A DNA stretch of 64,000 nt from a virus. The stretch is from positions 20,029-84,028 of IMG/VR virus record IMGVR_UViG_3300049043_000244, one strand, 5' to 3'. A program made the position numbers and the translations under genes. The number at the start of each line of letters is the position of its first letter. Position 1 is the first letter of the stretch. This document shows positions 17,963 through 63,273 of the stretch, in pieces. Below the pieces are notes generated by a model. That model saw nothing but the letters and a program-made list of their open reading frames with translations. It made no database searches and was not told where the DNA came from.

Positions 17963-18808
17963 TTACAAAACCTTATGAGCAATGTAACTCTGAGAGGAGA
18001 TTTGTTCTATGTTCCACTTTATTATAGGCTTTACATAATAATCGTCATCCTTTTTTAATTTAAATTTTTTGTAGTTGATTCTATTGTGTTTTTCTAAAAT
18101 TAATTTATGAACAACATTATCATCATCAACATTGTTGTACTTTTTGATGTGATCTCTAATTGCGACTTCTAAATGTTTTTTCTCATTGTATGCTTGAAAT
18201 TCTTCCACTCTTTTCTTGGTTAAATGTGGCAAAGAAAAGAGAGTTTTTTCATCAAATTTGATATTCACGTGTTTTAAACCTAAGAGTAAAATTCTCTCAT
18301 AAATTTCAGTATCTTCCCAGGCAGCAATTTATTCATGTTTTCATTGTATCCACCAATTTTAAAGTAATTTTCTTTTGATATGTACAAAGTACCCCAAAGT
18401 GGTTTTAAATACTTATAATTTTGATAGACATGTTTTGGATCAGACTTTGCATTTGTAAAATGCCAAGACTCATCTGTACCTGTTAAAAATGACTTATCAT
18501 CAATAGTATGATGATCAAAAAAATTGAAGTATGGATTCATGACAGTATCTGAATCCAATTTTAAGATATAATCACTCTCAACTAAAGATGCGGCTAAGTT
18601 TAATGGTTGAGGTTGATTGAAATATGGTTCTTTTGGAACAGTGATGATCTTAATTCGACTATCTAATCGAGTTAAATGATTGACTGGTTTATCAGAATTC
18701 CAATCTGTTACGATGATTTCATTAACCTCGTCAAACTGAATCCATGAACTTATAGAAATTGTTAAAGCTTCACCCTGTTTTTACAGGCAGATATTATCGA
18801 AATACTCA
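17963..18808 (-). CDS. GT2/GT7-like glycosyltransferase (paralog 2), frameshifted
   Basis: YFNQPQPLNLAASL, LKLDSD, LWG.LY...IGGYNEN; paralog of upstream gene. Confidence 0.7.
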
Positions 18809-19650
18809 TATTTTGACAGTTCGTATAATTGATCACTTATTTGGATGACTTCCCATTTATAAATTGGTTCCGAATACCAATCTACGTTTATTTCTTCATC
18901 TGGATTTTCTTTTGGTTCTAAATTAAGAACTTGAGTCATTCTAGATGATATTGGATATACATTATGATTTTTATCTTTAGATAATTTTGCAATATATTTG
19001 TAGAGATCGTCACCCACCAAATCTTTTCCAAATTCACTTAAAATTTTAGTTATACTATTAAAGGATTCAAAATTTTTTACTCGATCTTGATCTGTATGAG
19101 GAATATGTAGGGCAGAACACTTTTGTATATCAATTAGAATTGGATCGAGGCCATAGGATATTAATCTTACAGCCAACTCATCATCTTCCACTGCATAATA
19201 CTTCCCATTATTTTCATTATATCCACCAACTTTTCTAAAAGTTTCGGTTTTTACATACAACAACCCCCAAAGAGAGTGTAAAAAATGAAAATCCATTCCT
19301 TCTAACAAATTGTTAGATCCTGACACAAAAGATTTTTCTGTAATTTTATGAATATCAAAAAAATTAAAATACGGATTTAGTATGTGATCACAATCCAATT
19401 TGAGAAGGTTTTCATTTTTAACTAAAGATGCAACTAAGTTTAATGGTTGAGGTTGATTAAAGTATGGTTCATTTTTTACATTAATAATTTTTATTTTTTC
19501 ACTTAAAATTGTTAGATGATCTATGGATTCATCCGAATTCCAATTTGTTACAATAATTTCATCAACCTCATCAAATTGCATCCATGAAGCCATGGACATG
19601 GCTAGGGGCTTATTTCTATTTTTACATGCGGATATTATTGAAACTGACAT
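18781..19650 (-). CDS. GT2/GT7-like glycosyltransferase (paralog 1)
   Basis: MSVSIISACKNR...LKLDCD (DxD)...VGGYNEN..YYAVEDDELAVRL. Confidence 0.8.
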   Translation of the reverse strand: MSVSIISACKNRNKPLAMSMASWMQFDEVDEIIVTNWNSDESIDHLTILSEKIKIINVKNEPYFNQPQPLNLVASLVKNENLLKLDCDHILNPYFNFFDIHKITEKSFVSGSNNLLEGMDFHFLHSLWGLLYVKTETFRKVGGYNENNGKYYAVEDDELAVRLISYGLDPILIDIQKCSALHIPHTDQDRVKNFESFNSITKILSEFGKDLVGDDLYKYIAKLSKDKNHNVYPISSRMTQVLNLEPKENPDEEINVDWYSEPIYKWEVIQISDQLYELSKYEYFDNICL

Positions 19651-21028: not shown

Positions 21029-21248
21029 GCGTTCCTTCAGTCGGCTTTTTGCGTCTATGAAAAACTTACAAGTCTTTGGAGATCCTTCTTTAAAAATCTG
21101 AATGAGTTCAGATCTTTCAGCTCATCCATTTTTAGTTTTACATTACCAATAAGTCTTTGACTTGTACACAAGTCCAGAGAATTGTTTCCATAGATGAACG
21201 ATCCGTTCCGAGTCGGCTTACTTCCGTCTGGTTTTCCAGATGAACGAT
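21029..21248 (-). ncRNA. tandem glnA-motif (glutamine riboswitch)-like RNA; second unit has ~130 nt expanded P2 loop
   Basis: Minus strand: AUCGUUCAUCUGGAAAACCAGACGGAAGUAAGCCGACUCGGAACG, then AUCGUUCAUCUAUG...CAUAGACGCAAAAAGCCGACUGAAGGAACG; directly upstream of DUF4278. Confidence 0.8.
21037..21191 (-). CDS. ~50 aa ORF nested inside the riboswitch (METILWTCVQ...ELIQIFKEGSPKTCKFFIDAKAD), with read indels
   Basis: ATG inside 5' strand of P2; TGA stop within the conserved GCCGACUGAAGGAACG. Confidence 0.55.
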
Positions 21249-21902: not shown

Positions 21903-22619
21903 TTTAGATTGTACTAAGTACATCAATGGTCGGAAACCATCCAATACTTTTCATGAGAGAAATGTCTACAACGTTGTCTTCCCTCTCTCCTGGAGTTTCT
22001 TCTAGAACTGGAAGATGTCCTTGTCCAAATGCTTTTCCAAGATCTCTTACAGAAACAGATTTTCCAGTTCCAATCGTAACTGGGCCCAGTGATCATCACT
22101 ACTTGCAAGATGCCGAATTGCACGACAAACATCTTTTACGTGAATCCAATCGCGTTTATGATTGGTTACATATTTTGCCTTTCCGTCCTTTAATAGATCA
22201 TACATCATGTTTCCACGACCACCAGGGCCGTAAACAGTTGTAAACCTCATACCAACTGAATTGGAGGAGCCATTTGTTCATTAATCCACTTAGTCATCGC
22301 ATATGGATTAGTCCAGTATCTTTCTTCAACTGCGCTTGAAGAAGCATAAAGAAGTCTAGTATTAGTTTTTCTACACCACTCAAACAAAGGTTTTGCAAAT
22401 GCAACATTGTTTTCGTAATATTTTTGAGGATTTTCTTGACTTTCACGAATGTCCGCATATGCAGCTAAATGAATCACAAGATCATAATCTCCCCCAGAAA
22501 AATCTCTAACATCGTCTGGACGATCCAATCCAGTTACCCATTGATTATGAGTTTCTCTCCAATCATTAAAAACATGTTTACCAATAAATCCTTTATGTCC
22601 AGGTGATTAAAACTTTCAT
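21903..22619 (-). CDS. NAD-dependent sugar epimerase/dehydratase, frameshifted
   Basis: MKVLI.GHKGFIG, VIHLAA, YASSS, YAMTK (YxxxK), RDWIHVKDV. Confidence 0.85.
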
Positions 22620-27854: not shown

Positions 27855-29394
27855 TTATTTACTAAGTAATTGATGAGTTTTTTCAAACCAAAGATAATCT
27901 CAGATGTGAATTATTTAGAGTGTTAAGTGCATCCTACCGGAGTTTCCACTAGAGGTTGGTCTACTGACAAATTAAAACTGGTGTTTAAAAGTATTCCATA
28001 CCCAGACAATTTTTTAAACTTCAGACAAAGCTCATGTAAATAACCATCTATTTTCGATATCGTTTGAATTCTACATGTATTGTCGATGTGAGTTATTCCA
28101 GGTAACATTTTAACATACTTTTCTGTTACTGGGAAACATATTGTCATATGTGGACTCGATTCAATTCTACCCATATCAAAGTAAATATTAGCATCCTCTT
28201 CCAATACTACACAAGCAAAAGGTCTATACCATTCCCTTTTTTAATTTGATTTACAATTTCTTTTGCATCTTGGATTTAGTGCATTAAAAAGGATGGAACG
28301 ATTTCCAAGTGCTTCTTTGACCAGCTTCTGCAAGACCACTATAAACTGCAACCGACTTATTTTGATTTAATAACTTGGCAACATCTTGCACAGATAACAT
28401 AATTCCTTTATACGAAGAAACGTCGTAATTGAATCCATGAAAGAAAGTTGTTTCAATCGAATTGGGAGATTTTCCAGTCAATTCAATATAAGAATTAATT
28501 GCAGCACCTATACTTACTCCATTATCATTACATAGTGGTTCAAAATAAAACTCTATATCAGGAAATCTTTGCAAGTAATAGTAATTTGCAACGATATTCA
28601 TACCGTAACCACCAGAGATACATACTTTTTTAATTCCTGTTTTTTCTATCGAGTCTTGTATTAAATCGCCAATTGATTTTTGTGTTTGTTGTTGGACTTC
28701 ATAACAAAAGTCGGCATATAGTTGATAATTATCAACTTTTACCTTTTCAATGGGTTTTATATTTGGATTTTGTTTGTAAAAGTAAATTTTGAAACAATTC
28801 ATTTGAAGATCCATAAGATGATAGTCCCATTGCTTTTCCACAATCATCTGGGGTGTTTCCAATTAATACTCAAAGCCATATCATACAATCCACCCACCCC
28901 AACTTTACCCAAGGAAAATCAAAAGATGAAAATGATTCTACAGCGTTTTTATAAATCAATGTATTTTTTTGACGATTAAATACAAAAACACTCTCCACTT
29001 CCACCAAGTTATCTTTTATTTCCGATCCAGACCCATCAGCTACGATGACCAAACTCTCATCAAATTTACTATTGCAAAAAGCGAGAGAAGCATGATTTAA
29101 ATGATGATCTTGTTGTAATACTAACTTTACATTTGAATTATATTTTTTACATTCTTCAAAAATTGTCGTTATAAACTTATCTCCCTGGGGAGGGTTAAAA
29201 TTAGATACACAAATTATATCAAGAGATTCTTCTAACTCACTACAAATTTGTTTTATTAGATGTAAAATTGAATTTTTGTCGTAATCATGCTTTTTTCTAG
29301 TAAATCTTTCAATTAAAAAATATTTTTTTACACTACCATTCTCCAGAACACATATCGAAGAATTATGCCCCAGATGAACACTTAATATTACCAT
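27855..29394 (-). CDS. O-carbamoyltransferase (CmcH/NodU/TobZ family), frameshifted
   Basis: HNSS..., IERFTRKKH, HHLNHA, VADGSG, SGGYGMN, DNGVSIG, THIDNTCRIQT, LLNTSFN. Confidence 0.9.
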
Positions 29395-30249
29395 TTTTCC
29401 AAAAATTCTTTTATATCCTTGAGAGGCATTTTCATAATCATTTCTTTATCATTTGGTTTATCATAAGTGAAGAAATCTTCCAATAAAAATTTATAATGAT
29501 GATTTTTCCACCACTCTTCTATTAGTCTACTACAAATTACATCCATAGGATACATTTTATTATTGTTGATAAGATTGTCTCCGTTTAGACTCGTATTAAG
29601 ACTGAAAAGAGGTATTGAATACGTAATTCCAATATCAAATAAATTTGCATCATGCAGCTATTTCTACTTTACTGTGTTTCATATGATATGAATTATCCCT
29701 AAAAGTTAATCTATATTTACCATCACGATACAATAAGTCTTTCAGTTTTTTGGCATATGAACGATTGATTAAGTATGCAGCTCCAGATCCAGACAATTTT
29801 CTTCGTTTATGTAAAAACATGGGAATAGATAATCCATCTTCAGAATATGCACTACAAAAATAAAGTTGAATACATTCCCAATTTTCTGGTAAGTTATTCT
29901 CAAAATAAGTCCAATCAAAATTCCAATACTTTATATCTAACTAATGATAGATCATCTTCCATCATTAAACATGTTTCAGATGGATGAGTATCGTACCAAT
30001 TTATAATGGTTTCTATATTATTCAGTGCAACCGACATTACCGATAAGGATTCCAAAATTTCCTTTTCCACCACTACATCTTTCCACTCATCGTACTTGGA
30101 AACATGATACTTAGAAGCATTAACTCTATGGTAATTTGTTATGCCCAATAATTAAATTGGGATTCCATCGATCCTCTTCTATCAGTCCTATGTTCTAGAT
30201 TGATATAATATATTGGAGGAAGACCTTTGAGTTTATTTTCTAAGTCCAT
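29388..30249 (-). CDS. GT25-like glycosyltransferase (paralog 4), frameshifted
   Basis: LKGLPPIYIINLEHR.DR...CLMMEDDL...WECIQL...GAAYLINRSYA. Confidence 0.75.
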
Positions 30250-31213
30250 TATTCTCTTTCAAGATCCAATGTAACACAGTGAAAACAACCACTTAAAGTT
30301 CTTGAATATCTCATAGGAAGCATTACACACTCTATTCCATGTTTTTCCAGTTCTTTTCGAGTAGGTTCTTGTCTTTCCTCTAAAGCAACTAAATTTGGAT
30401 TCACACTAAAAAGATTCATGTTACACCATTCTGAGGCATGGTTGTAACCTGGAAAATAACCAATATCCACGGGTTCTGGACACCAAACCACATCCCAGTT
30501 CCTAAAAGGTTCTGGAAGAACATCAACAGACTTAATTCTTCCCGGATTTAACAACATTAAACCTTCACGAAGAAATGCAATCGTGGTATCAATGTGCATA
30601 TAACTATAAACACCCTCAAGAAGATGTACTTTTGCACGATCTCCAAGCATTTCTTGCAGTAAATCGAACTCCTGCAATATTTCCACTATTCGATACAAGA
30701 TACAAAATATCATCATTTGCACGAATGATATTGACTGCATCAAAAGCAGGAGTAATCTCAGGTCAATGCAAGAGTATCTTTGTCTCCTACACAATTCTCA
30801 TTGTAAAGTTCTTCCTGATGTTTGCAAGGAACAATGATAGTAGTGTTTAAACGATCAATTAGAGGTTTCCATGCATCTTTTCTGCACTCCAAAGGCATTG
30901 GAGTTGCAATAGTAAGATCCTTATGAGTAAAAATTACATCTCTGGGACAAAAATTGTAATAATCGGTAGGAGTTCTCTTTGGTCTTACAACTTCTACACC
31001 TTCACCCAACAGAAATTTAACAAAATTCTCTAAATCCTCGTTGGCTTCGTCTATAACCTGTTGGGGATACAATCCTACGGGAACATCGGAAATATCACTT
31101 CTGTCTGCATAATTGATTGTACGAACACTCAGATCAACTTCAGGAACTCTTGCATAATCTGCAACACCTACGATTACCTTTTTTAATTTATCCCACTCAT
31201 TCTGACTTTTCAT
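30249..31213 (-). CDS. amidinotransferase, StrB1 (inosamine-phosphate) type; one frameshift
   Basis: NEWDKLKKVIVG, CPRD, FDAVNIIR..DILYLVSNSGN, HIDT, SRTLSGCFHCVTLDL (Asp/His/Cys triad motifs). Confidence 0.9.
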
Positions 31214-31710
31214 TTCAAAACCCCAGTAACTTGAATCGCATATCGGTCTTTCATACTAAAGTTATAAAATGCATGTATTTCGTCATACTTCCAATAAAAA
31301 CAATCTCCACTCTCCAAGTACAGTGTGCAGTATCTTTAATTTGCAAAATTTGTCCCGGAGAACTATCCTCCAACATAACCATACATCTCATCACTTTATC
31401 AGAATCTACATCATTTATTTCCACATACTTACCATATAAATCCGTGTGAAGAGGCAAATATTGACCAGGTTTAAAATAGTTTACTGCACACGCAACTTTA
31501 TCCCAAAAATCAAAGTGAGGAATAATATGTTCATCCACACATTTGGGCATAGGGTTGGGTAACTGGTACTTATAAATCGAGAGTTTTTCCTTATTATGAC
31601 CTGAATTTAGATATTGATTCACCAACTCCTCATCTTTATGAGTTGCTAAAAATATAGTCAAGATCATAAAAATCTACAATATTCCAATTAGGTTTGATAT
31701 GACTAATCAT
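31210..31710 (-). CDS. 2OG-Fe(II) oxygenase/cupin
   Basis: PGQYLPLHTD (HxD)...distal IHAFYN...R after correcting indels. Confidence 0.7.
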
Positions 31711-32294
31711 TTAAATACTGACATCTGTGTTAAATCGGGGTAATCCCTGTGGCTCCATTTTTACCAGGAGTTTTTTTCCGCTCATTTCAGTAATTCAATA
31801 CCGGTTTTGGCCACCTCGGGAGTCATGTAATAATGATACCCCATAGTAGTTATGTCCTGTTCAGCCCATGGACGACTGGGATCACGACCATCATATGACA
31901 TTTTTTTAAGTGTATCATAATCCTCTTTATTTTGCAACAAGATCGCACCACCTCTTCCGAGATTCAAATGTTTCTTAAACTGAAAACTTAAACACATGAA
32001 TGTTCCAGGAATATATGTGTTCTCACCCCAAAGAACGGCAGCATCAATGATATTTGTACCTCCCAAATAGTAGTAATCCGACCACTCTTCTTCTCTCCAA
32101 CTCCATTCCAACTTAAGTTTCATACAAGTCATTGGAACTGAAACATAAGTCCTCTTAGGAATTGTAATATAATCTTCGTGAGTGTATCTCAGACAAAGTT
32201 CAAGTGCATGAGTACACGAATCAGTAGCCATTGCATGTGGAGCTCCAAAAAACTCTGCAATTTGAGATTCAAACTCAGTAACGTACTCAAACAT
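31707..32294 (-). CDS. short DegT/DnrJ/EryC1/StrS-family PLP aminotransferase
   Basis: FESQIAEFFGA..AMATDSCTHAL, IIDAA, CLSFQFKKHLNLGRGGAIL, GYHYYM. Confidence 0.85.
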
Positions 32295-33150
32295 CTTCAA
32301 ATTCTCCTGGTAAAATTATTCTATCATTTGACTTGCCATAAGTAAAGAAGTCTTCCAAAGTATATTGGTCTCGGAGTTCTTTCCACCATTTTTTGCAGTT
32401 TATAAGAGAATGCTAGGTCTGTCCTCTCCTCTTTTCTACAAACATTTTGAGCCAACTACCAAGACTTGCATTTACAGAAAATAATGGTATACAATATGTT
32501 TTGCCATTATGTCCAAGAAAATAATCGGTGGTAAAATTTGGCATTCCCAACCCCTCATATTTACCAATTGCTTGACTAGACCATTTATAGTTACAAATTT
32601 TTTGAGAAAGGTCAAACTTACCATCTTTATAGTGAAGACTTATTATTTTTTCTGCATATCTTCTATTGATCAAAGAAGCACCAGTATCATGTCCATACAT
32701 AATTGGATGCAAAAAACAGGGACAACATTCTTCATTCTCAAAAGTCATTTGAATACAGTCCCAATCGTATGGAATGTGATTCATTAGATATTCCCAATCA
32801 AAATGCCAATAATCAATAAAACTAAGATCGTAATCATCTTCCATGATGATAACATATGGATCATTGGTTGTTTCTAACCAATTTTTAATGTTAATTAGAT
32901 GAGAAAGAGTGATAGAAATTTCAGCAATATGAAAGTTTCTTCTATGATAGTCTTCAAATGAATTTAAAATAACCAGATCTTTCCACTCTTCATATGTTGA
33001 AAGTTGATACTTCGACCCCGATACTTTGGTGTAATTTTTAATTCCCCAATAATCGTATTGAATTTCAGTATATTCTTGTTTATCAGGCCTCTCATCAATT
33101 GTTGCTAAAATGATAGGAGGAAGTCCCTTCAGTTTATCTCTCAAATTCAT
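32287..33150 (-). CDS. GT25-like glycosyltransferase (paralog 3)
   Basis: LKGLPPI...LSHL..IK.W...IMEDD...WDCIQM...LINRRYA. Confidence 0.75.
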
Positions 33151-33958
33151 GATGTACTTCTATAATTAATTCTTTTTGTTTTATTGAATTTAAATAAAAA
33201 ATATCATCCAAAGTATAATTTTGACATTTATTTTTCCACCAATCAAAAACTAAAAGATCACAATTTTTAGCCATGTGATTTATTTTTCCATTTCTAAATC
33301 CATCACTTATAAAATTATAATTAGTGGTAAAAATTGGAATTGAATATGTTATTCCTACTTGATATAAAACAAAATCTACAGACTGATAGTGATATTCTGG
33401 CCAATTTTCTGTATATCCATAATTAGAATACAATTTAAATTGATTATTTGTGTAATGAAGTTTGATTAATTTTTGTGCATAAGATCTGTTAATGAGTATA
33501 CAACCCGTAGAATGGTTATTCCGAGTCCATTTAGACAAATTCATTTTAATAAATTGTTCTCCAATAATGTGGAGTTGTACGCACTCCCAATTACATGGCA
33601 AATGATCAATGAATGTTGGCCAATCAAAATTCCAATACTTAACAGTGTCTAAGGAAATATCATCTTCAACTATTAGACAAGTTTCAGAGACATTAGAGTC
33701 ATACCAATCAATTATACCATGAATTCTATCAACTAAGGTAGCGAGAAACCACACTTGAGTTCTAAGTTTGTCGATTAAAACTTCCGATTTCCAATCATCG
33801 TAGTTATCCACAGAATATCTAGAAGAATCAACTCTATGATAATTTGTTATACCATGATTCAAAAATTGTGTTTCAAGATATTCTCTACGATCTGTTCTAT
33901 GATTTAGATTAAAATAATAGATTGGAGGAAGTCCATCTAATTTGGAATTAATTATCAT
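33134..33958 (-). CDS. GT25-like glycosyltransferase (paralog 2)
   Basis: LPPIYYFNLNHRTDRR...IVEDD...WECVQL...LINRSYA. Confidence 0.8.
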   Translation of the reverse strand: MIINSKLDGLPPIYYFNLNHRTDRREYLETQFLNHGITNYHRVDSSRYSVDNYDDWKSEVLIDKLRTQVWFLATLVDRIHGIIDWYDSNVSETCLIVEDDISLDTVKYWNFDWPTFIDHLPCNWECVQLHIIGEQFIKMNLSKWTRNNHSTGCILINRSYAQKLIKLHYTNNQFKLYSNYGYTENWPEYHYQSVDFVLYQVGITYSIPIFTTNYNFISDGFRNGKINHMAKNCDLLVFDWWKNKCQNYTLDDIFYLNSIKQKELIIEVHHEFER

Positions 33959-34749
33959 TGGAAATTTACCCTTTCGACCATTTCATAATCATTTTTCTTT
34001 CCATAAGAAAAAAAGTCTTCTAAAGAAAAATTATCTCTTTTATTTTGCCACCAATCATAGTATATATCTCTACAAATAAAATGATGTTCTTTTGGAACTT
34101 TGTCCAAATGTGGATTTTGAGTTATTAAAGGTAGTTGATATGTAACTCCCAAAAAACAAATAAAAGTGTCCAATGAAACTACTCGATGTCCTTTGTTAAG
34201 TGGATATGCACCATACTTACGAACCAATAAGTATTTTTCTTTTATATAATGCAAATTAATTAACTTTTGAGCAAAATGTCTATTAATTAAAATTGGCCCA
34301 TAAGCACTTGTTTTGTCTTTAGGATGAAGAAAAAACCGAATATATTTTGTAGATTCAAATCCCAATTGAATGCAATCCCAATCATAAGGAATGTTTTTGA
34401 TTAAATATTCCCAATCAAAATGCCAATATTCGATTAGATCCAAATCGTAATCGTCTTCAAATAAAATTAAGTGTTTCTCATCAGTGGTTTCTAACCAATA
34501 ACGAATCATTTCAAGAGTAGAGAGTGATCGAGCCGCAAGTCGATGACTCTCTTCAACAATTATTTGAGGGTAGTGCAATATTTCTTTCCAGTCGTCATAA
34601 TTTTCTACCAAATAATTTGATCCAGAAAATCTTGTTACGTTGGTCAAATTCCATTTTTCAAATTGTTTCTCCATGTATTTTCTTCTATCTACGTCAAAAT
34701 CTAGATTCAGATAGTAGATACTTGGAATTCCTTTGAGTTTATTAGACAT
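33955..34749 (-). CDS. GT25-like glycosyltransferase (paralog 1)
   Basis: IYYLNLDFDVDRRKYM...LFEDD...WDCIQLG...LINRHFA. Confidence 0.8.
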   Translation of the reverse strand: MSNKLKGIPSIYYLNLDFDVDRRKYMEKQFEKWNLTNVTRFSGSNYLVENYDDWKEILHYPQIIVEESHRLAARSLSTLEMIRYWLETTDEKHLILFEDDYDLDLIEYWHFDWEYLIKNIPYDWDCIQLGFESTKYIRFFLHPKDKTSAYGPILINRHFAQKLINLHYIKEKYLLVRKYGAYPLNKGHRVVSLDTFICFLGVTYQLPLITQNPHLDKVPKEHHFICRDIYYDWWQNKRDNFSLEDFFSYGKKNDYEMVERVNFQ

Positions 34750-35914
34750 ACCATGTAATAATTGAATATCGTGTCCCAGAGGTTACAGGCATGATTTCAT
34801 GTGGATACATGAAGTTAGATGGAAACATGATAATAGATCCTTTCGATCCACTTATTATAATTTCTCGATCGAAAAATGCGAACTCACCGCCTTCGTAATC
34901 ATCATTTAAAAGAAAAGAACAACTTACAGATCTTTGTTGATTTTTAAATGAATCGGTATGTTGTACATAAAACTGGCCCTCTCTATATCTCAACAAACCA
35001 TATCCAGTATCAATTTCTGAGCTGACATTGGGAAATAATTTTCGATATTCATTTATCGACTCTGAGGCACAAACATAGAAATCTTCATCTATTTTTTTTC
35101 TAACATCAAAATTTTTTTCAAGAACCACACTTTCAGAGATGTTGATGGTATCACAATTTCTAATTTCATGGTTAAGATTTCCAGATCCTACCGTGGTTGG
35201 AGACCAAAAACTACAGTCTCGATACTCTTCAATAATTCTATTGCACAATTCCTCTGAAACAACATTATCTAATGTAAAAATATAATCTTCTAAAGATTTT
35301 TTACTTCTTGGTGAAGTTGTTTTTGTTTCAGTAATGATCTGTTTAATATCAGTATTGTCAGTTATAGGTTTCTCCGTCTCATTTAGTTTATCAAAATATG
35401 TATAAGAACAATCTCCCCGACTTCTGACATAGTGTAAAAAGACCTGAGTATAATTTTTTCCCTGGTAGGGCCCTCTCCAATGAACTGCATTCCTACCCAA
35501 GTAAATCATGGCATCACCAGGATTCAATTTAACGCAACGTTTCTCTCCAGACGGAGTTTCTATCCATATAGGCCAACTAGAATCTCCATCTAGATGTAAA
35601 GTTACTGATATTTCACAAGCATCTCTATCGGTATGAGCCAATAGTTCACTTCCATTTTTATATACTCTGGAATAAACATAAGTTGGTAAAACAGTTTCTT
35701 CGATTAAAGAAGAAATTTCTGGAGTTTTTTCACAAAGTAATTCCAAAAATGAAATATAATTATAAGTAGAATAAGAATTTGGAGCCTGTGAATCTCCATC
35801 TACATTATTTTTTTCACAATGACTTAAAAACTCTGCGGAAAGATCTATGGATCTTTCTTTTGAAATAAAATTTGGCAGTATGATATAATTATTTTCAATT
35901 AATTGTTTGTTCAT
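34742..35914 (-). CDS. double-domain 2OG-Fe(II) oxygenase (prolyl-hydroxylase-like)
   Basis: Domain 1 HTDRDACEISVT...HWR; domain 2 HTD...YEGGEF...FPSNFMYPHEIMPVTSGTRYSIITW. Confidence 0.9.
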   Translation of the reverse strand: MNKQLIENNYIILPNFISKERSIDLSAEFLSHCEKNNVDGDSQAPNSYSTYNYISFLELLCEKTPEISSLIEETVLPTYVYSRVYKNGSELLAHTDRDACEISVTLHLDGDSSWPIWIETPSGEKRCVKLNPGDAMIYLGRNAVHWRGPYQGKNYTQVFLHYVRSRGDCSYTYFDKLNETEKPITDNTDIKQIITETKTTSPRSKKSLEDYIFTLDNVVSEELCNRIIEEYRDCSFWSPTTVGSGNLNHEIRNCDTINISESVVLEKNFDVRKKIDEDFYVCASESINEYRKLFPNVSSEIDTGYGLLRYREGQFYVQHTDSFKNQQRSVSCSFLLNDDYEGGEFAFFDREIIISGSKGSIIMFPSNFMYPHEIMPVTSGTRYSIITWYV

Positions 35915-35938: not shown

Positions 35939-36461
35939 TTAAATTTCTCTTAAAAGTTCTTCAATATCATAGAATAAATCTTCATCTTCATCTTCTTCTT
36001 CCTTATTTTTGTTCTCTTCAGCATATGTTAAGGATTCGACTGGAGGAATATGTGTTGGCGTCGGAGGAATATTAGGAGTTTCAATTTCTTCATTGAGCTG
36101 CAAGGTGATCAAGATATAATCCATAATCCTCTTCAATTTCATCAAAATAAACAAACTGGGATTTCAAACGTTCTTCCTCTTCTTTTTTGCGTTTTTTCTA
36201 GTTCTAGTTGTTGTTTCATAAAGCATCTTCCTCTTCTTTTTTTTCATTCCATAAATCGATAGCCTTTTCAAAGATGCCTAACTCACCAATTTTTAAATTT
36301 TCATAAGGGCCAACAAACTCTACTTCACCACTATCATCAATCCATTGAACTGCGTGAACTTTTTTTCCATCAATATCAGGAACCCAATCGAGATCCATAT
36401 GACTATAACCAACTCCCTCCATGTAAATGGTATTATCTGAGGGGATAATTGTCAACCTCAT
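35939..36461 (-). CDS. putative tail-fibre assembly/chaperone-like protein, frameshifted
   Basis: MRLTIIPSD..IY...VHAVQW...GEVEF; downstream of fibre genes. Confidence 0.5.
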
Positions 36462-36465
36462 GATT

Positions 36466-36809
36466 TATTCTCCCGAGTTTTCTGGTAATGTGTGCGTACT
36501 AGTTAAAGAAGTTACATTTACTGGTAAAAATGCCATTTTGTTGAATCATATCAATATATAGTTGTCTGTTTTCATTATTAGATTTTACCACTTCATTTCT
36601 AAAAGATTCAACAGCTGCACCAGTTTGTCTTTGTTGTTGAGAATTTTCAATCGTTAACATGGGCATCCAGGTCACAGCACATGACCAATGATCTACCTCT
36701 TGCCCAGTATTTGGATTCATTCCCCTCACATGCATGTACCAAGAACACTTATGTTCTACGCAATCTTTTCTAATAAGGGGCAAAAATTACCAGATTCGTT
36801 TTTTTTCAT
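36466..36809 (-). CDS. Cys-rich conserved phage protein associated with tail-fibre genes
   Basis: CPLIRKDCVEHKCSW...CAVTWMPMLTIENSQQQRQTGAAVESFRNE. Confidence 0.6.
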
Positions 36810-38271: not shown

Positions 38272-39297
38272 TTAATATAAAATCCAATGATTATTTTTAA
38301 GAGACCACTCAACAACTTCTGCAATTCTCTCTCGTACAGATTTTGCAGGTTTCCAGTCCCATCTGTTTCATTTTATCACTATTCAAAGCATAACGCAAGT
38401 CATGCCCAGGCTCAGAGAATGAAAGTCAACCAATTCATATTTTAATTCTTTCTTTTGAACTTGAGCAATAATTTGTGCAAGTTCAAGATTGTTTAATTCT
38501 TCTGCACCAATAATGTTAAATTTAGGGCACCTAATATCTCCATACGTTATTTTAAACTTGCCCGAGTAATTTAATAAAAATAAAACACTAGATGCAACAT
38601 CTTCTGCATGAATGTAGTGTCTTGATCCAGGAATAGTTTTGGTTGCATCACTGTGAATCATAATAGATTCTCCATCCCGAATCTTCCGAATGCACATTGG
38701 GATATATTTTTCGGGATGTTGGCGTTCACCAAAGACATTCATCGTGTGAGTAATATAGATGGGAAGACCGTAGGTATTTTCGTAAGCAACCCGCAGTCTT
38801 CTCCACCAGCTTACTTGCACTATAAGGATTTGTTGAATTATATCGATCATTCTCTTTGTATTTGATTCCATGAGGAAGTGACAAACACTTCATCCGTACT
38901 GAAGTAAATAAATCTTTCTAAATTGTCTTTCTGGGTTCTTGCAAACTCAAGAATGTTACATGTTCCCACAACATTATCCATTACAAATTCCATAGGATAC
39001 TTAATACTTCGATCCACATGAGAACCAGCCGCAAGATGAAGAATGTAATTAACTGTACCGATTTGACTACAAACTAAAGAATTTAGTTCGGATTTAAGAT
39101 CATGATAAACTATTTTTACACGTCTACGAACTTGTAAATCAAAAGACATCATTATCTCATCAAGACGATTTAAGTTACCACTATAATCAAGACGGTCAAG
39201 GGAAACGATGTCCCAATCAGTGTGAGTTAGGAGATAACTAATCAAATGATGTGCAATAAATCCTGCACCGCCAGGTAATAAGTACTTTTTTACTCAT
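38272..39297 (-). CDS. dTDP-glucose 4,6-dehydratase (RmlB-like), frameshifted
   Basis: GGAGFIAHH, HLAAGSHVDRSI, YFSTDEVF, MNVFGERQHPEKYIP. Confidence 0.9.
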
Positions 39298-40212
39298 AAC
39301 TCACAGAATGCCAACTTCTTTAAGAAATTTTCGATACGCCATAAATCTACGAAGTGAGGGTTGTCCTGGTATAGGACCCTAGACTTTCACATATTTCACA
39401 GTAACATAACCAGTCATACCATGGAGTCGTTGGGTCAAGTGCTGGATGCGGCTTGTTTGCGTGTAATTCTTTAAGTTTAAGGAGTTCAACCAATTCTGAA
39501 ATTTCATTAGATATTTTATATTAAAGTTCTGTCAATTGTGATTTATCTTTAATTTCAATATAAATTGATGGAGCAGGATCATTCCAATGTTTAATGACTC
39601 CAGCTACGATAAAACAATTCGTAATTAAATATGTGAAAAATATTAATGTTCTTATTTGAGCAACATGATCGGACTCTCTATCATTTTGCGAGGCTTCTCT
39701 CCAAGTGATTTTGCCCACATCCTCCACAATGGATTCCCCCAGAGATTTTTCTTTTTCTTCATCATAAATTGATGGTCTTGATTTTACATAGATGAGTTCT
39801 TTCCATTGACTATTATAACACAATACTAATAAACGTTCGTTAGCATGAATTGAACAATCCCTATAATTAACATCATTTTTACGTCGAACAAACAGTTCAA
39901 TCGTAATATATTCTTTATCCTTAAAATACACCCAACCTTCAATGTCGTTTTTCCAAATCACATAATCATTAACTTGCGGTTCATACATTATCCTTAACTG
40001 TAAGAGTATAATCTTTTTTCTTAAGTTTATGTTTGTAAATAAACTTATCCACATGAGCTGACACTCAAACCAACAAACTCGATTATCTTTTCCCTCTTTT
40101 AGGTCAAGACGAATGGGAAAGGAAGAATATGGAAACTTTTCCGTTGTAGGAGCGATCATAGAGTTAAGTGGAGTGTTTCGTACTTTGAGTATAGACCAAA
40201 AAGAAATAAATG

Positions 40213-45205: not shown

Positions 45206-46296
<1,091 letters not shown>

Positions 46297-46329
46297 TTGT
46301 TCTTTAAAGGGTAAGTAAGATCCAGGCAG

Positions 46330-46425
46330 GGAACTGGTAATACATTATACTCCACAGCACCCTCCACTGTGGACATGAGAGACTGGTGTTTAACCTCCCC
46401 ATAGGTCTCGGTTAGGTAGAGGAAC
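46330..46425 (-). ncRNA. PhotoRC-II-like cis-regulatory RNA in psbA leader
   Basis: Minus strand CCGAGACCUAUGGGGAGG...GUCUCUCAUGUCCACAGUGGAGGGUGCUGUGGAG, with two stems and GAGGG loop. Confidence 0.7.
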
Positions 46426-46465
46426 AATGTTAAGAAATATGAGGATTTCGTAACATTTGTTTACC

Positions 46466-47181: not shown

Positions 47182-48008
47182 TTAAATCCTCCATTTATAC
47201 TTCCAAGAACGGCATAATTTGCAGTTGTACTTGCAGAACCAACCGTATTGATTCCAGTAAATGTAAAGATATCAAATCCTGTTGATGTGGAAACTCCGGA
47301 GTAATGCATTTGCAAGAGAACCTCCTGCCCACTTAATTGTTCTGGAAGTACCGTTGAGTGTAATTGCTGTACAAGTCCTTGCAGTTCCTGTCTGATTTAC
47401 TACAACTGAGAATGAAATACTGTGATTATCAAATGTACTATCCGTTGGAATGCCAGTTACATTTAAAGTAATATCTCCAGAAGGACTTGTGCAGAGAGCA
47501 ATATTTCCACCACCAGTATTGAAAAGCAAGCTACAGTATTTCCAGGAACAAGTGTAGTTTTTTCTGCAACAGATCTTGTTCTTAACTGTGTAGGAATAGA
47601 AATTGTAGATGTAACTATTCCAACATTAATATCAGGAGTTCTGTAAGTCCTTGAATTATAGCTCGCTAGGAGTAGTAGCGTAGGTTGGTACCAGTGAAGT
47701 GTTTGAGGTTGCATAAGCGCAGTTGCAGTTGTACTTAGTTGCATAAGCTGCAATTCCTGCAGTTGGCGTAGGTTGCAATACCACTTGAGGTTGCATATCG
47801 AAGTAGTCCAGTTCTTGCAGTTCCAGTGAGATTTCCTACAAATCCTCCACCAACAGTAAGTGTATTTGTATCTGTTCTATAAGTTAAATCAACATCTGCT
47901 CTTAAATATTGACCTGTTGTTCTATCCTCAACAAATGTTGGATAATAAATGGTAGTTAAACCATTTGTATTCGTAATGTCAATAGTTTCTGATGTTGTTG
48001 CAGTTCCA
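47182..48008 (-). CDS. tail-fibre-like protein C-terminal part (truncated by chimeric junction)
   Basis: A/T-rich short repeats, P.INVGIVT, GGGNIALCTSPSGDITLNVTGIP. Confidence 0.65.
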
Positions 48009-48978
48009 CGTGGTGCAGGACGTTTTCACGCGCTACGCCTTCGCCGAGCTCATGCGCACGCAGGCGGACGCGACGACCGCGATGGCCGCGGTGCTCGCGA
48101 AAGCGCAGCGCCAGGGCCACAAGGCGCCCACGCAGCTCATCACGGACGCCGACGGGGTCTTCAAGGCCCCCGCCTTCGACGCCCTGATGCGGAAGCACGA
48201 CATCGCGCACACCTTCAAGGCGTCCAAGAACGACATCGGCACCGTCGACCGCCTCATCAGCACGATCCGCCGGGCCCTCGCGCAGGAGTCCGCGGAGAGC
48301 GGGGAGAACGACTGGGCGACGCAGCTGGACAAGGTGGTGCGGGGCTACAACGAGGCGCCCCACCGACGACTCTTTGGGGCGTCGCCGACGGACGCGAGCA
48401 AGCCGCCCCAGACGGAGCACGAGAAGGAGCTCGTCTTCGACCTGCGCTACCGCGGGGCTCAGGAGGTGGCGCAGAACCAGCGGCGAGATCGACGAGCGCA
48501 GGGCCAAGCTCGAGAGGGCCGGGGCCTTCCGAACGCTCGTGCAGGCGCCCGAAGCTCGGGAGGCGAGTCTACAAGAACGTCTGGTCCGAGCGCATCCACC
48601 GCCTCTCGGGCTTCGACGAGACCGGGGCGCAGAGCCAAGGACGAGGAGGGCAAGCATGTTCCTGACTGAAGGAGCTCCTCCCCGTCCACCCCGACGAGCA
48701 CGACGACGAGCCTCGCCGACGGCCCAGGTGAAGCCGGCCAACGAGAAGACGAGGGGCATGCTGCGGAAGTATGCCGACAAGGTCACGGCGCCACCTGATG
48801 GCCAAGCCGGGTCGGCAGGAGGCCCTGTGGCGCGTGGCCCAGACGCTCGACAAGGCTGGGCAACTGGCGGGAGGCCACGAAGCTTGCGGGGCTGAATCAG
48901 AAGCGTCAGATGGCGGCGCTGCTCGAGCAGTTCCCGGAGCTCTTCGAGATCAAGGGGAGCGAGGTGGCGCTCAAGTGA
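48009..48978 (+). CDS. retroviral-type (rve) integrase, 5'-truncated, frameshifted
   Basis: VVQDVFTRYAFA...LITDADGVF...TVDRLISTIRR...W...LDKVVRGYNEAPHRRLFGASP. Confidence 0.8.
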
Positions 48979-50077
48979 CTCTCCTCGGCGTACCACCCCT
49001 CCCGACGAAGGTCGGCGATGCACCTGAAAGCGTAGTCGTACTCGAGAGCGACGTTGTACATGTCGTACCGCAGAGCCCTCGCGCGAACGTAGGCCCGATC
49101 GAAGCGACCCTCCAGGGCCAGCCGGACGCCCAGGCAGTAGTCTGCCAGGGTGTGGCAGAGGAGACCCGTCCGGAGATGCTCCACTGTCTCCGCGAAGGCT
49201 CCGGCGTCCGGGGCGATGACGGGGGTGCCGCAGAGCTGGGCTTCGACGTTGACCCCACAGAAGGGCTCCAGGTAGACGCTGGGGGTAAGGAGGCAGGTGA
49301 GCTGACTCAGGAAAACACCCCGGTCGCGACCATGCAGTGGCGGCTGATAGCGGAGGTTGGGGCTCCGATGCGTGTATGCGTCCTCTCCCTGACCGCAGAC
49401 GACGAAGTCGACGTCCGGAAAGCGCCGTGCGACCTCGCAGACGACGTCAAGACCCTTGATGTGGCATATGCGACCGAAGTAGCCGACGAGCGGCTTGGTC
49501 GGGGTTCCGAAGGGCCACTCCGAAACGTCGTAGTAGTTAGGCACTACAAACCAGTAGTTGTGCGGCGGCACCTGCTCGCGGCCACACACCCACGCCTTCT
49601 GAGCGTGCGACTCGAAGATCCGAAAGGGCAGGAAGCTCTGAGGGTACCCGATGCCAGACTCCACGGCCAGAAGCCCCAGGCCCTCGATGGCCTCCCGGTG
49701 GGCCTCGCCGAAGGGTAAGCAGACGATGTCGCCCTCGCGATAACGCTCCAGAAGCGCTGCGCGGAGCCGGCGGTTGAATTCTTTGTAGAGCGGCGTGCCT
49801 ACGTTGGCCAGATCGCCTACGAAGCCCCGGGCTGCGATTCCCTATCGGGGTAAAGCTCGCGGTGCGACTCCAGGCGAAGCTGCTCCCACTCCTCCCGCGA
49901 CAGGAGGTCGACGTTGTCGCTCCCGAGACTGCCGCAACCCTCCACCCCATAGTGGATCACCTCATAGCCCCGACTGCGCATCATCGGGGCGAAGCGCAGG
50001 ACCTTCCCCGTGAACGCGCAGTGCGAGAATTCCGGCGAGGTGATCGTGTGCGGGATGGCCGGCAGATGCAGGCGCAT
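48971..50077 (-). CDS. GT4-like (GT-B) glycosyltransferase, frameshifted
   Basis: MRLHLPAIPHT...CAFTGKV; ESGIGY; YFGRICHIKGL; PSVYLEPFCGVNVEAQLCGTPVI..D.GAFAETV. Confidence 0.85.
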
Positions 50078-50084
50078 TTAATGA

Positions 50085-52021
50085 ATGCAGAGACGCTTGA
50101 CTGTCTTCGACCCCCTCATCGACACCGCCGCCATCGGGCCCACGGGAGTGGGGCCCGGTCCGATGGGGCCCTCTGGCCTGACCGGCGAGCGGAGTGCAGG
50201 AGCCTCTGGTCCGACCGGAGCGACCGGCAGTTGCCGGTGGCGCTCGGAGCGACCGGAGCGACCGGAGTGGCCCGGTGGAGTCGGTGGGCCTCGGAGCGAC
50301 CGGAGCAACCGAGGCGGTGGCATCGGTGGGGTCGGAGCGACCGGGCATGCGGCTCGGGTGGAGTCTTGGAGCGACCGGAGCGACCGGAGTGGCCGGTGGA
50401 GTCGGATCGGGCCTGGCGCGACCGGAGTGGCCGGTGGAGTCGGACCGGCGTCGCAGTGGTCTTGGAGCGACCGGAGCGACTGCAGGCTGGTGGCGTCGGT
50501 GGCGTTGGAGCGACAGGAGCGACCGGAGTGGCCGGTGGAGTCGGAGCGACCGGAATCGCAGGTGGCCTCGGCGGCGACAGGAGCGACCGGAGTGGCCGGT
50601 GGAGTCGGGGCGTCGGAGCGCGACTGGAGCGACCGGCGGATGGCGCTCGGTGGCGTCGGCAGGACCGGAGCGACTCGGAGTGGCCGGTGCGTTGCTGGCC
50701 TGCTGGCAGCACCGGTCCGCCGGCCGGGCAGTCGACGGAGCGATCTGGGCTTGCCGGCAGCACCGGCCCGCGGCCCGGTCCAACAGTCCCTGGCCCGACC
50801 GGCGACCGGCAATATCAACACGCCAGATCACGCAGCTCTATCAGAATTTCAGCTTGTCCGGCGGAGGCACGCTCACCGTCAAAGTCGTCAGCAACCAAGT
50901 GAAGATCCGATGGGACGCGCGGGTGATTGCCACCCCCCTGATGGGGAAGGCGACTTCTTCCCTGTACGACATTCGTATGTCCCACAAGCGGCACGATTGG
51001 CACTGGGCAGATCGCCGACGCCGACGGCATTCCGCTGGGCGCGAACAGCGACAATCTCGCGACGCTGTACTACGTGCTGCCAACGGCCTCGTCGAACGCT
51101 CAATTCCTCAACAACTTCCGCGATCATTACATCAACCAATACGACCGACCAACCTTGATTCGAGGTGGATGGCCCTAGCTACGCTCAACACCGACGCAGG
51201 GTCAACCCTCAAATGGCTACCGGGCGCGGTCGCCCTGCCTCTCCCCGACTAACGGGCAGCAGATCCAGTGGGGCAGCGACGCGCGGCAGCTTGGGCGGGG
51301 CGCCAGCAAGATAATTCTGGATGGTGGGACCGGCAATGCGGCAATCCCTGGCGTCCTGACTTCGAGCAACACTGACATCGGCAGCTTCGTTGCACACGAG
51401 CGTACGACCGCTTACGGCAATCCATCCGGTCGATGACATCCGCTTTGCGCGGGATATCAACTGACACGAGCACCGGATTACACCGGTAACCGGCGACGGC
51501 ATGACTGCACGGTTGCGTGGAATTTGGCGGCACGCTGGCGCTTCCGACAAGTGACAGCGCCTCCGACGACACTGCTCTTCGGAATCACGCCAGCAACGTC
51601 TTCTACAAGAGCGTCGCCCTGGAGCATGATCACCCTGGATTCCTGCACCGTGATTACGGAATTGATCGACGATCGTCGGACAGCTGTACCGCGTGCACGA
51701 AGATCACACGCGTACGGTTATCTCCTGGCAGCGATCCCGTATCCAAGCGGCGGCCATTGCATCGTCCATCCAACAGCCACTGGCAAGGCGAACTTCATCA
51801 CCGATCGAACCGGCAGAACCTCTGCAGGTGAGCGCGGTATAAAACTGGCGACCATGACGCCTCCACACCCCGCAGGGGCGAACGTCACACCGATGGCGAT
51901 CTCGGCAGCCGCCGGACGTGTAGTCGTGCATCGTGGTCCCATGATCGGCAACTCCGCGGAAACTGTAGGGCCCGTAGCACCGTTGCTGACTCGGCGAACA
52001 ACATCGACTTCTACTTGCTGA
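50085..52021 (+). CDS. collagen-like fibre protein with C-terminal globular domain, frameshifted
   Basis: Gly-X-Y repeats (GATGVAGGV), then beta-rich domain. Confidence 0.7.
50135..50810 (+). repeat. tandem 9/27-nt collagen-coding repeats GGAGCGACCGGAGTGGCCGGTGGAGTC
   Basis: Unit recurs many times with indels. Confidence 0.85.
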
Positions 52022-52783
52022 TCCTCTAGGAGCAGCCGGTGCTCGAAGCGAATCCAAAAGATGTCTTCAGGCTTCTTGGCCTCCAGCCTTACGTACAGAA
52101 ACGAGTAGGGCTCCTCGGTAGCCTCGCGGTAAAACTGCATGACGGTCTTCTTGTCGACAAGAGCCGACACCTCCTCGCAGAAAGCGTCTAGCTCCATCTG
52201 GGAGCGAAGCCGAAACACGAAGAGGGCCGTCGCCTGCGACCGAATGGCCGGCGAGATCGCCTTCCACTTCTGCGTCGAAATCAGCGTGCTGATCTTGGCG
52301 TGACGGCCTCTGAAAAACAACTCCCAGACCAGCGTCTCAGTCCGAGTGAAATCGGGCCGATCTGCGAAATCGTCAACGATGATAAGGATGTTGAACAACG
52401 TCTTCAGCTTCGCTTCCTTGGCTCGGCGAATCACTTCCTTCTGCGTCTGAATGACCCGCTGTAGGTCGTCCGGCTTATAAGATTGGAACAGGAACTGCTC
52501 CCTGTCGTTGTCTTGTCCTAGCTCAGTCTTGCACATCTTGATCACCGGCTCCCAGACGGTATCTACGAGCACCGAGGGCGACCAGATGTAGATCCGAGCG
52601 AAGACGCTCCGGCCCCGCCGACGGAAGAAGTCGCAACACATCGCCTGGATGAGCTGAAGTCTTGCCGGACCCGCTGGGCCCGAGGAGAGCCATGCGGGCG
52701 GGGATGCTCGGCAGAATCTCGTGCTCAGGCTGCTCCGTGTGCCACTCCTTGACCTTCTTAGGGACGACTTTCGGCGGCTCCAT
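52012..52783 (-). CDS. A32-like/FtsK-HerA DNA packaging ATPase
   Basis: LLGPSGSGKT (Walker A), LIIVDDFAD (Walker B), FFRGRHAKISTLISTQK...AIRSQ; 3' end approximate. Confidence 0.9.
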
Positions 52784-52806
52784 TTTCCGGGGCCCTTTAC
52801 AAAAGC

Positions 52807-54047: not shown

Positions 54048-54055
54048 GAGAAAAA

Positions 54056-54189
54056 TGGCGTGGCACCCGCCGTCCGTCCAACACGCTCTGCAGAAAGCCG
54101 TCCAGCTGGGCAGCGCGGCTCACACCGCCTACCAGGTGGGGAAGGGCATCTACACCGTGGGGAAGTTCCTAGCGCCGCTGTTACTATAA
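54056..54189 (+). CDS. small amphipathic peptide (~44 aa)
   Basis: MAWHPPSVQHALQKAVQLGSAAHTAYQVGKGIYTVGK..APLLL. Confidence 0.55.
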
Positions 54190-54195
54190 AGCACA

Positions 54196-54417
54196 ATGGC
54201 GCTCCACACCACCCGTCGGCTGGCACGACAGGGGTGGCAGCACGCGAAACGAGCCATCGGAACGGTGTCCGCGGCGGCCGACAAGGCCACCCCGTTCTAC
54301 ACCAAGTACGTACACCCAGTGCTGGACGCGAATCCAGAAGACGCGAACCCTCGCGAAATACGTCCACTCCGGCCTGATGGTCAACCGCGCGGCCGGAACT
54401 ACCGCCGACGCGTATGA
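54196..54417 (+). CDS. small basic amphipathic protein
   Basis: MALHTTRRLARQGWQHAKRAIGTVSAAADKATPFYTKYVHP. Confidence 0.55.
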   Translation: MALHTTRRLARQGWQHAKRAIGTVSAAADKATPFYTKYVHPVLDANPEDANPREIRPLRPDGQPRGRNYRRRV

Positions 54418-54466
54418 GCGCATCCGGGGTTCCCTGGGCCGCTGAGTTTTTTTCCGTCACCAATAA

Positions 54467-55705: not shown

Positions 55706-55707
55706 AC

Positions 55708-63254: not shown

Positions 63255-63273
63255 ATCCCTCTCTTTACTATGT

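Follow-up and report, generated by a model that had tools for sequence, protein, structure and literature searches.

What would a virus do with an aminotransferase, an amidinotransferase, and a carbamoyltransferase encoded among glycosyltransferases (GTs) and oxygenases? The question is raised by a locus in IMG/VR virus record IMGVR_UViG_3300049043_000244, a linear record of 84 kb with a CheckV completeness of 39%, whose final 64 kb (positions 20,029 to 84,028; 64,000 nucleotides) were analyzed here and are referred to below as the window. Nine co-oriented genes lie on its minus strand from 35914 down to 27923 in the order OO, G1, G2, G3, AT, o, AMD, G4, and CBT, predicted to encode a two-domain (OO) and a minimal (o) 2-oxoglutarate (2OG)-Fe(II) oxygenase, four GT25-like glycosyltransferases (G1 to G4), an aminotransferase (AT), an amidinotransferase (AMD), and an O-carbamoyltransferase (CBT). 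The start and stop codons of the intact genes abut or overlap (34742/34749, 33955/33958, and 33134/33150). A first-pass annotation made from the letters alone had placed nine genes on one strand and assigned each to a family; their number, strand, coordinates, and order were all confirmed by profile and PHROG searches of the window, and all nine family calls hold by Pfam, PHROG, PDB profile, and fold matches. On balance, with a little better than even confidence, we favor a conserved viral glycan-tailoring operon in which a nucleoside diphosphate (NDP)-sugar would be oxidized, transaminated, and amidinated, followed by GT25 assembly and carbamoylation, the acceptor most likely being a hydroxylated protein side chain. 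Judged from sequence comparisons, the operon is real and widespread among viruses, its function is predicted, and the copy in the window is a poor-quality assembly.

Conservation and synteny of the operon

Homologs of AMD numbered 6,192 in a metagenome protein collection, with >120 clusters at ≥69% identity, the longest of their contigs reaching 259 kb. In IMG/VR, 228 loci were found, from marine and lake samples and on genomes of up to ∼250 kb; 80 of these were retrieved and their open reading frames (ORFs) classified against the proteins of Synechococcus phage S-SCSM2R. Synteny was scored in the 38 loci with ≥7 kb of upstream and 3.5 kb of downstream sequence; these loci come from related genomes with AMD identities of 65–99%, and the counts are thus not independent events. 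The genes do not assort independently, a point fixed beforehand as one to examine: AT was present in 37 of the 38 loci, the GT25-like genes (2–6 copies) and o each in 32, OO in 30, and CBT in 21, with radical S-adenosylmethionine (SAM) genes in seven and short-chain dehydrogenase/reductase (SDR) genes in six, and the genes of the array were all on one strand. In 39 of 42 loci, no more than 3.5 kb separated AT from AMD, in keeping with the earlier idea that transamination precedes amidination. The exact order of the window, including two small genes (h299 and h300) upstream of OO, was found again in ∼30 loci at 65–80% identity, and the arrangement is therefore not due to chance. In hundreds of uncultured T4-like phages, the genes AT, o, and AMD stand side by side as a core that hardly varies.

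Predicted activities of the operon proteins

The aminotransferase gene (31707–32300, with an in-frame stop at 31782–31784) encodes a half-size, ∼195-residue member of the DegT/DnrJ/EryC1/StrS family that matched PF01041 with 59.7 bits against a cut-off of 19.8 (E = 3.9e-16). Its family profile recruited from the PDB a sugar aminotransferase (7b0m, 4e-10) and a perosamine synthetase (3bn1), and the invariant K108 within the motif SFQFKK aligns with the lysine of both enzymes that forms the Schiff base with pyridoxal 5′-phosphate (PLP). The orthologs are 194–206 amino acids long (n = 74) rather than showing the canonical two-domain architecture of ∼360–400 residues, and they align to residues ∼35–260 of the solved enzymes, with the C-terminal domain absent. 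Because a length of ∼195 residues recurs in 74 orthologs, the small size is a real family feature.

AMD (30252–31213) encodes a protein of ∼320 residues, here divided among three frames by shifts near 30760 and 30665. Its family profile matched StrB1 of Streptomyces griseus (1bwd) end to end (residues 4–319, 250 bits, E = 2.3e-73), and HsvA, AGAT, and SxtG at ∼140 bits (∼1e-40), with only a weak match to Pfam PF02274 (E = 0.059). Residues D92, D158, H205, D207, and C311 were invariant in 15 orthologs, and the motifs CPRD, FDA(V)N, MHIDT, and FHCVTLD are all found in the three frame pieces of the window. AMD is thus predicted to be a StrB1-type amidinotransferase of the AGAT/StrB1 branch of the pentein superfamily with an intact Cys/His/Asp site. 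Bacterial StrB1-like homologs scoring 250–295 bits against the phage profile were among the matches listed; these adjoin GlmS-like/ABC genes, AsnB-like genes, ATP-grasp and lysine 2,3-aminomutase genes, ornithine/diaminopimelate decarboxylase genes, or genes of nonribosomal peptide synthetase (NRPS) size. In a quick maximum-likelihood tree, drawn with a midpoint root for display only, the viral AMDs formed one clade (SH-aLRT 98) apart from >50 sequences from bacterial genomes among the matches listed. An amidinotransferase homolog (32% identity over 109 amino acids) is also encoded by the Campylobacter jumbo phages CP220 and F379, which places the family in at least two unrelated phage lineages. 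S-SCSM2R itself carries a second, more divergent amidinotransferase, ORF266 (locus at 213353–216336), beside KdsA/KdsB and the 2OG oxygenases ORF267 and ORF269; the virion proteome of that phage included both ORF266 and ORF269 (PMC12801897).

Two genes encode predicted oxygenases. OO (34742–35914, 390 amino acids, intact) matched phrog_3531/2954/61, and its C-terminal half is of the prolyl 4-hydroxylase (P4H) type (PF13640, 66.6 bits, 3.9e-18). The N-terminal half, which in the viral family is commonly mislabeled “ferrochelatase,” has an HxD…H…R motif of its own, so that the motif is present in each half. The OO family profile matched the P4H of Bacillus anthracis (5hv0, 1.3e-7), followed by PHD2, P3H1, PiuC, and LH3. 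The small gene o (31210–31710, ∼166 residues, with one or two frameshifts near 31650 and 31312) had no sequence match in Pfam or the PDB. A structure model of an ortholog, with a predicted local distance difference test score (pLDDT) of 93.6, was matched by VIA-align to PiuC (9qn0, Z 13.7), a P4H (4iw3, Z 12.8), and a prolyl 3-hydroxylase (P3H; 1e5r, Z 12.4), and the invariant residues are H88-x-D90…H146…R156, the arginine lying ten residues past the distal histidine. The double-stranded β-helix fold with its HxD…H triad and 2OG-binding arginine, by which the P4H/PiuC clade is recognized, was found in both OO and o, and the model points to o being a 2OG-Fe(II) oxygenase of that clade. The operon encodes three P4H/PiuC-type domains in total. 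A sugar ketoisomerase of the FdtA/QdtA type was considered for o and rejected: 133–151 residues align with 2OG oxygenases (Z 12–13.7) versus ∼100 with small cupins (Z ∼10), and o carries the HxD…H…R motif.

The glycosyltransferases comprise G1 (33955–34749) and G2 (33134–33958), both intact, G3 (32290–33150, with an in-frame stop at 32413–32415), and G4 (29394–30249), whose frameshifts near 30145, 29937, and 29657 divide it into four pieces. G1 (1.1e-34; included in the family alignment), G2, and G3 (1.5e-37) matched phrog_2835 with E-values of 1e-34 to 1e-37, and G4 was recovered by tblastn, with a phrog_2835 match on one piece. Matches to the Pfam GT25 family (PF01755) were weak, the window copies reaching 14.6 bits against a gathering score of 24 and nine of 22 family members matching (best E = 6e-7), and the fold was settled by an AlphaFold model of G2 (pLDDT 86.8). 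The nearest folds to this model were mimivirus R655 (9crz, Z 15.7), 9u7j (Z 14.2), and the catalytic domain of ColGalT1 (8zgc, Z 14.0), the human galactosyltransferase that acts on collagen hydroxylysine, whereas all other GT-A families scored Z ≤11.6; Foldseek gave E = 7.5e-9. The EDD (DXD) motif is conserved in the family, with D99 invariant and D100 in ≥90% of members. Modeling thus indicates that G1 to G4 are GT-A glycosyltransferases of the GT25 fold. All of the GT25-like paralogs end in a conserved C-terminal tail, WWKN.RD..TL.DFF.YGK.ND (e.g., window 32290–32412), that lies outside the part aligned to R655 (model residues 10–223) and may be a docking motif.

The final gene, CBT (27923–29394), is interrupted near 28871, 28776, and 28330, leaving at least three frame pieces. 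The pieces matched PF02543 (36.6 and 25.9 bits), PF16861 (95.2 bits, 4.1e-27), and phrog_1601, so that both the Kae1-like Carbam_trans_N and the YrdC-like Carbam_trans_C domains are present. The intact ortholog from the related locus L061 matched 7xb6 (9e-38), TobZ (3ver, 1e-35), and also GdmN and NovN in the PDB, and CBT is predicted to be a NodU/CmcH/TobZ-type O-carbamoyltransferase. The same two-domain architecture is found in TobZ, the nebramycin/tobramycin 6′′-O-carbamoyltransferase (3ven), and in NodU (7e-39 to the CBT ortholog), although the bit score of 134 is well short of the NCBIfam equivalog cut-off of 1000 for NodU. Loss of catalytic residues, anticipated as a possible outcome in the first-pass annotation, was not what the operon proteins revealed: the AMD motifs, the PLP lysine of AT, and the HxD…H…R residues of o and of both halves of OO are all retained.

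Broken reading frames in the window copy

Six of the nine genes (G3, AT, o, AMD, G4, and CBT) carry frameshifts or in-frame stops, which raises the question of whether this copy has decayed. The broken frames are probably sequencing or assembly errors, because psbA in the same window is shattered too, the pieces stay close to their orthologs, and relatives of ∼93% identity lack single bases at four break points. psbA, which is among the most constrained of phage auxiliary genes and was used here as an assembly-error marker, is scattered over at least three frames at 45.3–46.3 kb, and a GT family 2 (GT2) gene at 18–18.8 kb is also shifted. By tblastn, the broken pieces keep 67–93% protein identity to the intact L061 orthologs, with values of 90–93% for AMD and 86–91% for o; OO, itself intact, is 73% identical to its L061 ortholog. 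The L061 ortholog of G3 reads through the stop (amino acids 1–283, 78% identity), after which the WWK..DFF.YGK tail continues in the same frame, and that of G4 spans amino acids 1–284 across frames. Contigs from two other public runs (X2 and X3; ∼90–95% alike) have exactly one base fewer at 28776 and 28871, both break points of CBT, and at 29655 and 29937, both break points of G4. The contigs of a lake-water metagenome run (X1) with 99% identity to the window, probably from the very sample that yielded the record, leave the frameshift sites uncovered. Real decay of this copy, toward which six broken genes of nine could be taken to point, is accordingly the less probable explanation.

Proposed pathway, substrate, and acceptor

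If the family assignments are carried through, the pathway would begin with a host-supplied NDP-hexose, which an SDR 4,6-dehydratase travelling with the module, the small oxygenase o, or both would convert to a keto-sugar; in variant clusters, a radical SAM enzyme could do so instead. AT would turn the keto-sugar into an amino-sugar, and AMD would move the amidino group of L-arginine onto the amine, giving a cationic guanidino-sugar such as NDP-4-guanidino-4,6-dideoxyhexose. Three to six GT25-like paralogs would then each add one residue of a short oligosaccharide, and CBT would O-carbamoylate one hydroxyl using carbamoyl phosphate and ATP. The most probable product would be a guanidino- and carbamoyl-bearing glycan, that is, a short sugar chain with a positively charged guanidino sugar, built on a side chain of a phage or host-surface protein that had first been hydroxylated by OO.

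An NDP-sugar is favored over a cyclitol as the substrate because SDRs travel with the module, the best solved matches of AT are NDP-sugar aminotransferases and perosamine synthetases, and cyclitol-pathway genes are lacking in the operon. Of the earlier suggestion of an amino-then-guanidino sugar or cyclitol, the sugar is thus retained, as an NDP-sugar, while the streptidine/bluensidine-type cyclitol is less likely: no inositol dehydrogenase, inosamine kinase, or phosphatase is encoded in the operon, all nine genes belonging to other families (kinases elsewhere in the genome were not searched). Accessory genes of related loci encode SDR dehydratases/epimerases, radical SAM enzymes, and GT2 proteins. 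SDR genes are directly beside AMD in variant clusters L019/20, L063–65, and L069–72 and in the minimal AT–AMD locus L077. In the window, a frameshifted gene of the NDP-sugar 4,6-dehydratase/epimerase family (38386–39300, minus strand; PF16363, 2e-20, and PF01370), 2.5 kb upstream of the operon, is a candidate supplier of the keto-sugar. Complete cluster-bearing genomes contained two to four SDR matches each and no sugar nucleotidyltransferase, so that the sugar precursors would have to be supplied by the host. The radical SAM enzymes of the variant clusters were also considered as BtrN-like aminocyclitol dehydrogenases, without support: their best matches were 7wzv, for which no paper was found, viperin-like proteins, and MoaA, and BtrN was not listed.

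As for the acceptor, the pairing of P4H-like oxygenases with GT25 proteins, the absence of membrane-type hydrophobic segments from all operon proteins (maximum KD19 of 1.25), and the lack of a flippase, polymerase, or lipid-carrier transferase in or beside the operon tilt the balance toward a hydroxylated protein anchor. By analogy with lysyl hydroxylase and ColGalT1 of collagen and with L230, R655, and R699 of mimivirus, a protein would be the most likely acceptor, with the lipo-oligosaccharide (LOS) of the host the next candidate and DNA the least likely target. A more specific proposal, namely that T4-like aquatic phages make a true and often O-carbamoylated guanidino-sugar (e.g., 4-guanidino-4,6-dideoxyhexose) that is GT25-linked to hydroxylated residues of virion proteins, is possible but doubtful. 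Were it true, it would represent the first guanidinylated protein glycan in biology, a collagen-like hydroxylation–glycosylation system in a bacteriophage, and a cationic virion coat affecting adsorption.

Several points weigh against the pathway as drawn. No product, substrate, or acceptor has yet been observed for any member of the cluster, and scans for promoters and terminators of the operon yielded nothing above chance (for example, five occurrences of TATAAATA versus 3.9 expected); no RNA data set was listed as containing the stretch. AT, for which aminotransferase activity is predicted, lacks the usual C-terminal domain. Similarity to StrB1 alone would not fix the acceptor of AMD, a member of a family that amidinates many amines, given that its bacterial relatives occur in many unrelated small-molecule contexts; StrB1 itself uses L-arginine as donor and scyllo-inosamine-4-phosphate as acceptor. 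Nor would the folds of the other enzymes settle the matter, as GT25 enzymes also act on LOS sugars and P4H-type oxygenases can act on small molecules. A dedicated collagen-like acceptor was considered and is unlikely, PF01391 being absent from two 100%-complete cluster-bearing genomes and G-X-Y runs from the window.

Alternative explanations

The same sugar chemistry could instead serve to remodel the host envelope, with the GT25-like enzymes decorating LOS, O-antigen, or another surface glycan and thereby blocking superinfection or altering grazing. Cyanomyovirus “LPS” (lipopolysaccharide) clusters are classically read in this way, as are cyanophage GT clusters in two recent treatments (PMC7824862; PMC12801897). 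Bacterial GT25 enzymes are LOS β-1,4-galactosyltransferases, one such structure (8xkd/8xc8) being among the fold matches of the G family, and the differences between related phages in GT copy number (2–6) and accessory genes would fit diversifying surface glycans. Envelope remodeling is a serious alternative that we nevertheless regard as rather unlikely, since the operon and its flanks lack the lipid-carrier machinery and membrane segments discussed above, the best fold matches of the G proteins are protein-acting members of GT25, and it is hard to see what three P4H-type oxygenase domains would do in LPS synthesis. Modification of DNA, in which oxygenases, AT, and GTs would decorate phage bases against restriction, is far less probable still. 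Among the enzymes that phages can employ to hypermodify their DNA are PLP enzymes, radical SAM enzymes, and GTs, which counts for such a role; the oxygenases are, however, of the P4H/PiuC rather than the TET/JBP type, the operon has no DNA methyltransferase, hydroxymethylase, base kinase, or DNA glycosylase-like transferase, and the fold neighbors of the G proteins act on proteins and sugars. The S-SCSM2R authors have speculated that GTs could glucosylate DNA (PMC12801897).

Two further explanations seem improbable to a similar degree. One is that the operon makes a soluble, aminoglycoside-like guanidino/carbamoyl pseudo-oligosaccharide acting as an antibiotic or signal. The closest solved relatives of its enzymes, StrB1 and TobZ, belong to streptomycin and tobramycin synthesis, AT is of the DegT/StsC family, radical SAM enzymes occur in variant clusters, and a free metabolite has been raised before (PMC12801897, as “antibiotic synthesis genes”; PMC7824862). 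Yet the operon is without an inositol-phosphate synthase, inosose dehydrogenase, kinase, phosphatase, exporter, or resistance gene, the GT25 fold is not used as the glycosyltransferase in known aminoglycoside pathways, the variant radical SAM proteins do not match BtrN, and an antibiotic would hardly pay off in the short time that a lytic phage has. The other is that AMD acts on a non-sugar amine, such as lysine or hydroxylysine (free or in protein), ornithine, or a polyamine, while the GTs alone make a glycan devoid of guanidino-sugar. The decarboxylase, aminomutase and ATP-grasp, AsnB-like, and NRPS-size genes beside the bacterial homologs would suit such substrates, as would the presence of HsvA (5wpi), which we take to act on polyamines, as a solved relative within the family. 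The phage genes point the other way, AMD being almost always directly beside the sugar-type DegT aminotransferase (37 of 38 loci) and often beside an SDR, and the viral AMDs forming a clade of their own apart from those bacterial enzymes.

Relation to known systems

To our knowledge, guanidino groups on sugars are known only from aminocyclitol antibiotics, and a phage-made, glycan-borne guanidino-sugar would, if confirmed, be new chemistry. The predicted sequence of reactions resembles the streptidine branch (StrI, StsC, StrN, and StrB1; 1bwd) in that a carbinol is oxidized, transaminated by a DegT-family enzyme, and amidinated from arginine by a StrB1-type enzyme in the same order. The phage operon differs from that branch in its lack of inositol dehydrogenase, kinase, and phosphatase, in its oxidant (a 2OG oxygenase, SDR, or radical SAM enzyme), in an AT of half the usual size with an NDP-sugar rather than a cyclitol phosphate as the likely substrate, in its coupling to GT25-fold transferases, and in the separate clade formed by the viral AMDs. 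A P4H- or lysyl hydroxylase-type 2OG oxygenase encoded next to GT25-fold transferases recalls LH3 and ColGalT1/GLT25D1 (8zgc) of collagen and L230, R655, and R699 of mimivirus (PMC9546862); the sequence identity of the G proteins to these systems is only 14–16%, however, and the phages add amino-, guanidino-, and carbamoyl-tailoring enzymes. Jumbo cyanophages S-SSM6a and S-SSM7 likewise have NodU/CmcH-type carbamoyltransferases, 2OG oxygenases, and cupins beside polymorphic GT arrays. For this cluster, Iyer et al. (2021; PMC7824862) predicted a role in polysaccharide decoration or secondary-metabolite synthesis; it additionally encodes a halogenase, a HemK-like methylase, and HAD phosphatases, and an amidinotransferase–aminotransferase pair is missing from it.

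Megablast of the operon against cultured phages returned no match. At the protein level, an orthologous cluster was found in ORF301–310 of S-SCSM2R (PQ898602; PMC12801897), which shares the core order OO, G, G, G, AT, o, AMD, 45–78% protein identity to the window, and the genomic position downstream of the PhotoRC-II RNA and psbA. It differs in that AT and o are separated by a radical SAM gene and one more GT, in that a GT2 gene takes the place of G4, and in that the carbamoyltransferase gene is 42 kb away, beside a wcaG RNA and SDR genes. AT, o, and AMD correspond there to ORF305, ORF308, and ORF309. In the published description, ORF305, 306, and 309 bear the label “antibiotic synthesis genes,” with the remark that their presence “remains unclear,” and the GTs are counted separately as cell-wall genes (PMC12801897). 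The earlier statement that no characterized phage pathway has this enzyme set is correct, with the qualification that the genes had already been annotated piecemeal in S-SCSM2R in 2025 (PMC12801897); searches of the literature brought up no paper in which AT, AMD, GT25, and CBT are considered together as a single pathway or in which such a pathway is tested. The module is abundant, and its one cultured carrier, S-SCSM2R on Synechococcus WH7803, makes the system testable. A pathway of this kind would give a function to three unexplained types of auxiliary gene, namely the 2OG oxygenases (“ferrochelatase”), the “Nol-like” carbamoyltransferases, and the “antibiotic synthesis” genes, and, if the acceptor is a virion or host-surface molecule, it would matter for adsorption, superinfection exclusion, and host range in cyanophage–host systems of global importance.

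Neighboring genes and other features of the window

Upstream of OO, tblastn with S-SCSM2R ORF299 and ORF300 located two small conserved genes on the minus strand, h299-like (36499–36786) and h300-like (36216–36464), neither of which matched Pfam or PHROG; the pair sits upstream of OO in most related loci. The ORFs farther upstream, at 36.8–38.3 kb, also had no Pfam or PHROG match. On the other side of the operon, two tandem GT2-like genes homologous to S-SCSM2R ORF310, one intact and one frameshifted, occupy 17978–19647 (minus strand), and such a pair lies a few kilobases downstream of the operon in many related loci. A second gene of the SDR epimerase/dehydratase family, in two pieces, is found at 22098–22600 (minus strand; PF01370, 1.3e-15).

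The Rfam matches in the window were limited to PhotoRC-II and a glutamine riboswitch, and the wcaG RNA was absent. The PhotoRC-II RNA (65.5 bits) precedes psbA (45250–46432, minus strand), and the glutamine riboswitch aptamer (RF01739, 40.2 bits) is at 21200–21248 (minus strand). The cyanophage part of the window has a G+C content of 30–39%, unlike positions 47900–64000, where G+C rises from ∼0.40 to 0.61–0.67 near 48 kb and then runs at 0.52–0.55; from this jump, the contig is probably chimeric at ∼48 kb.

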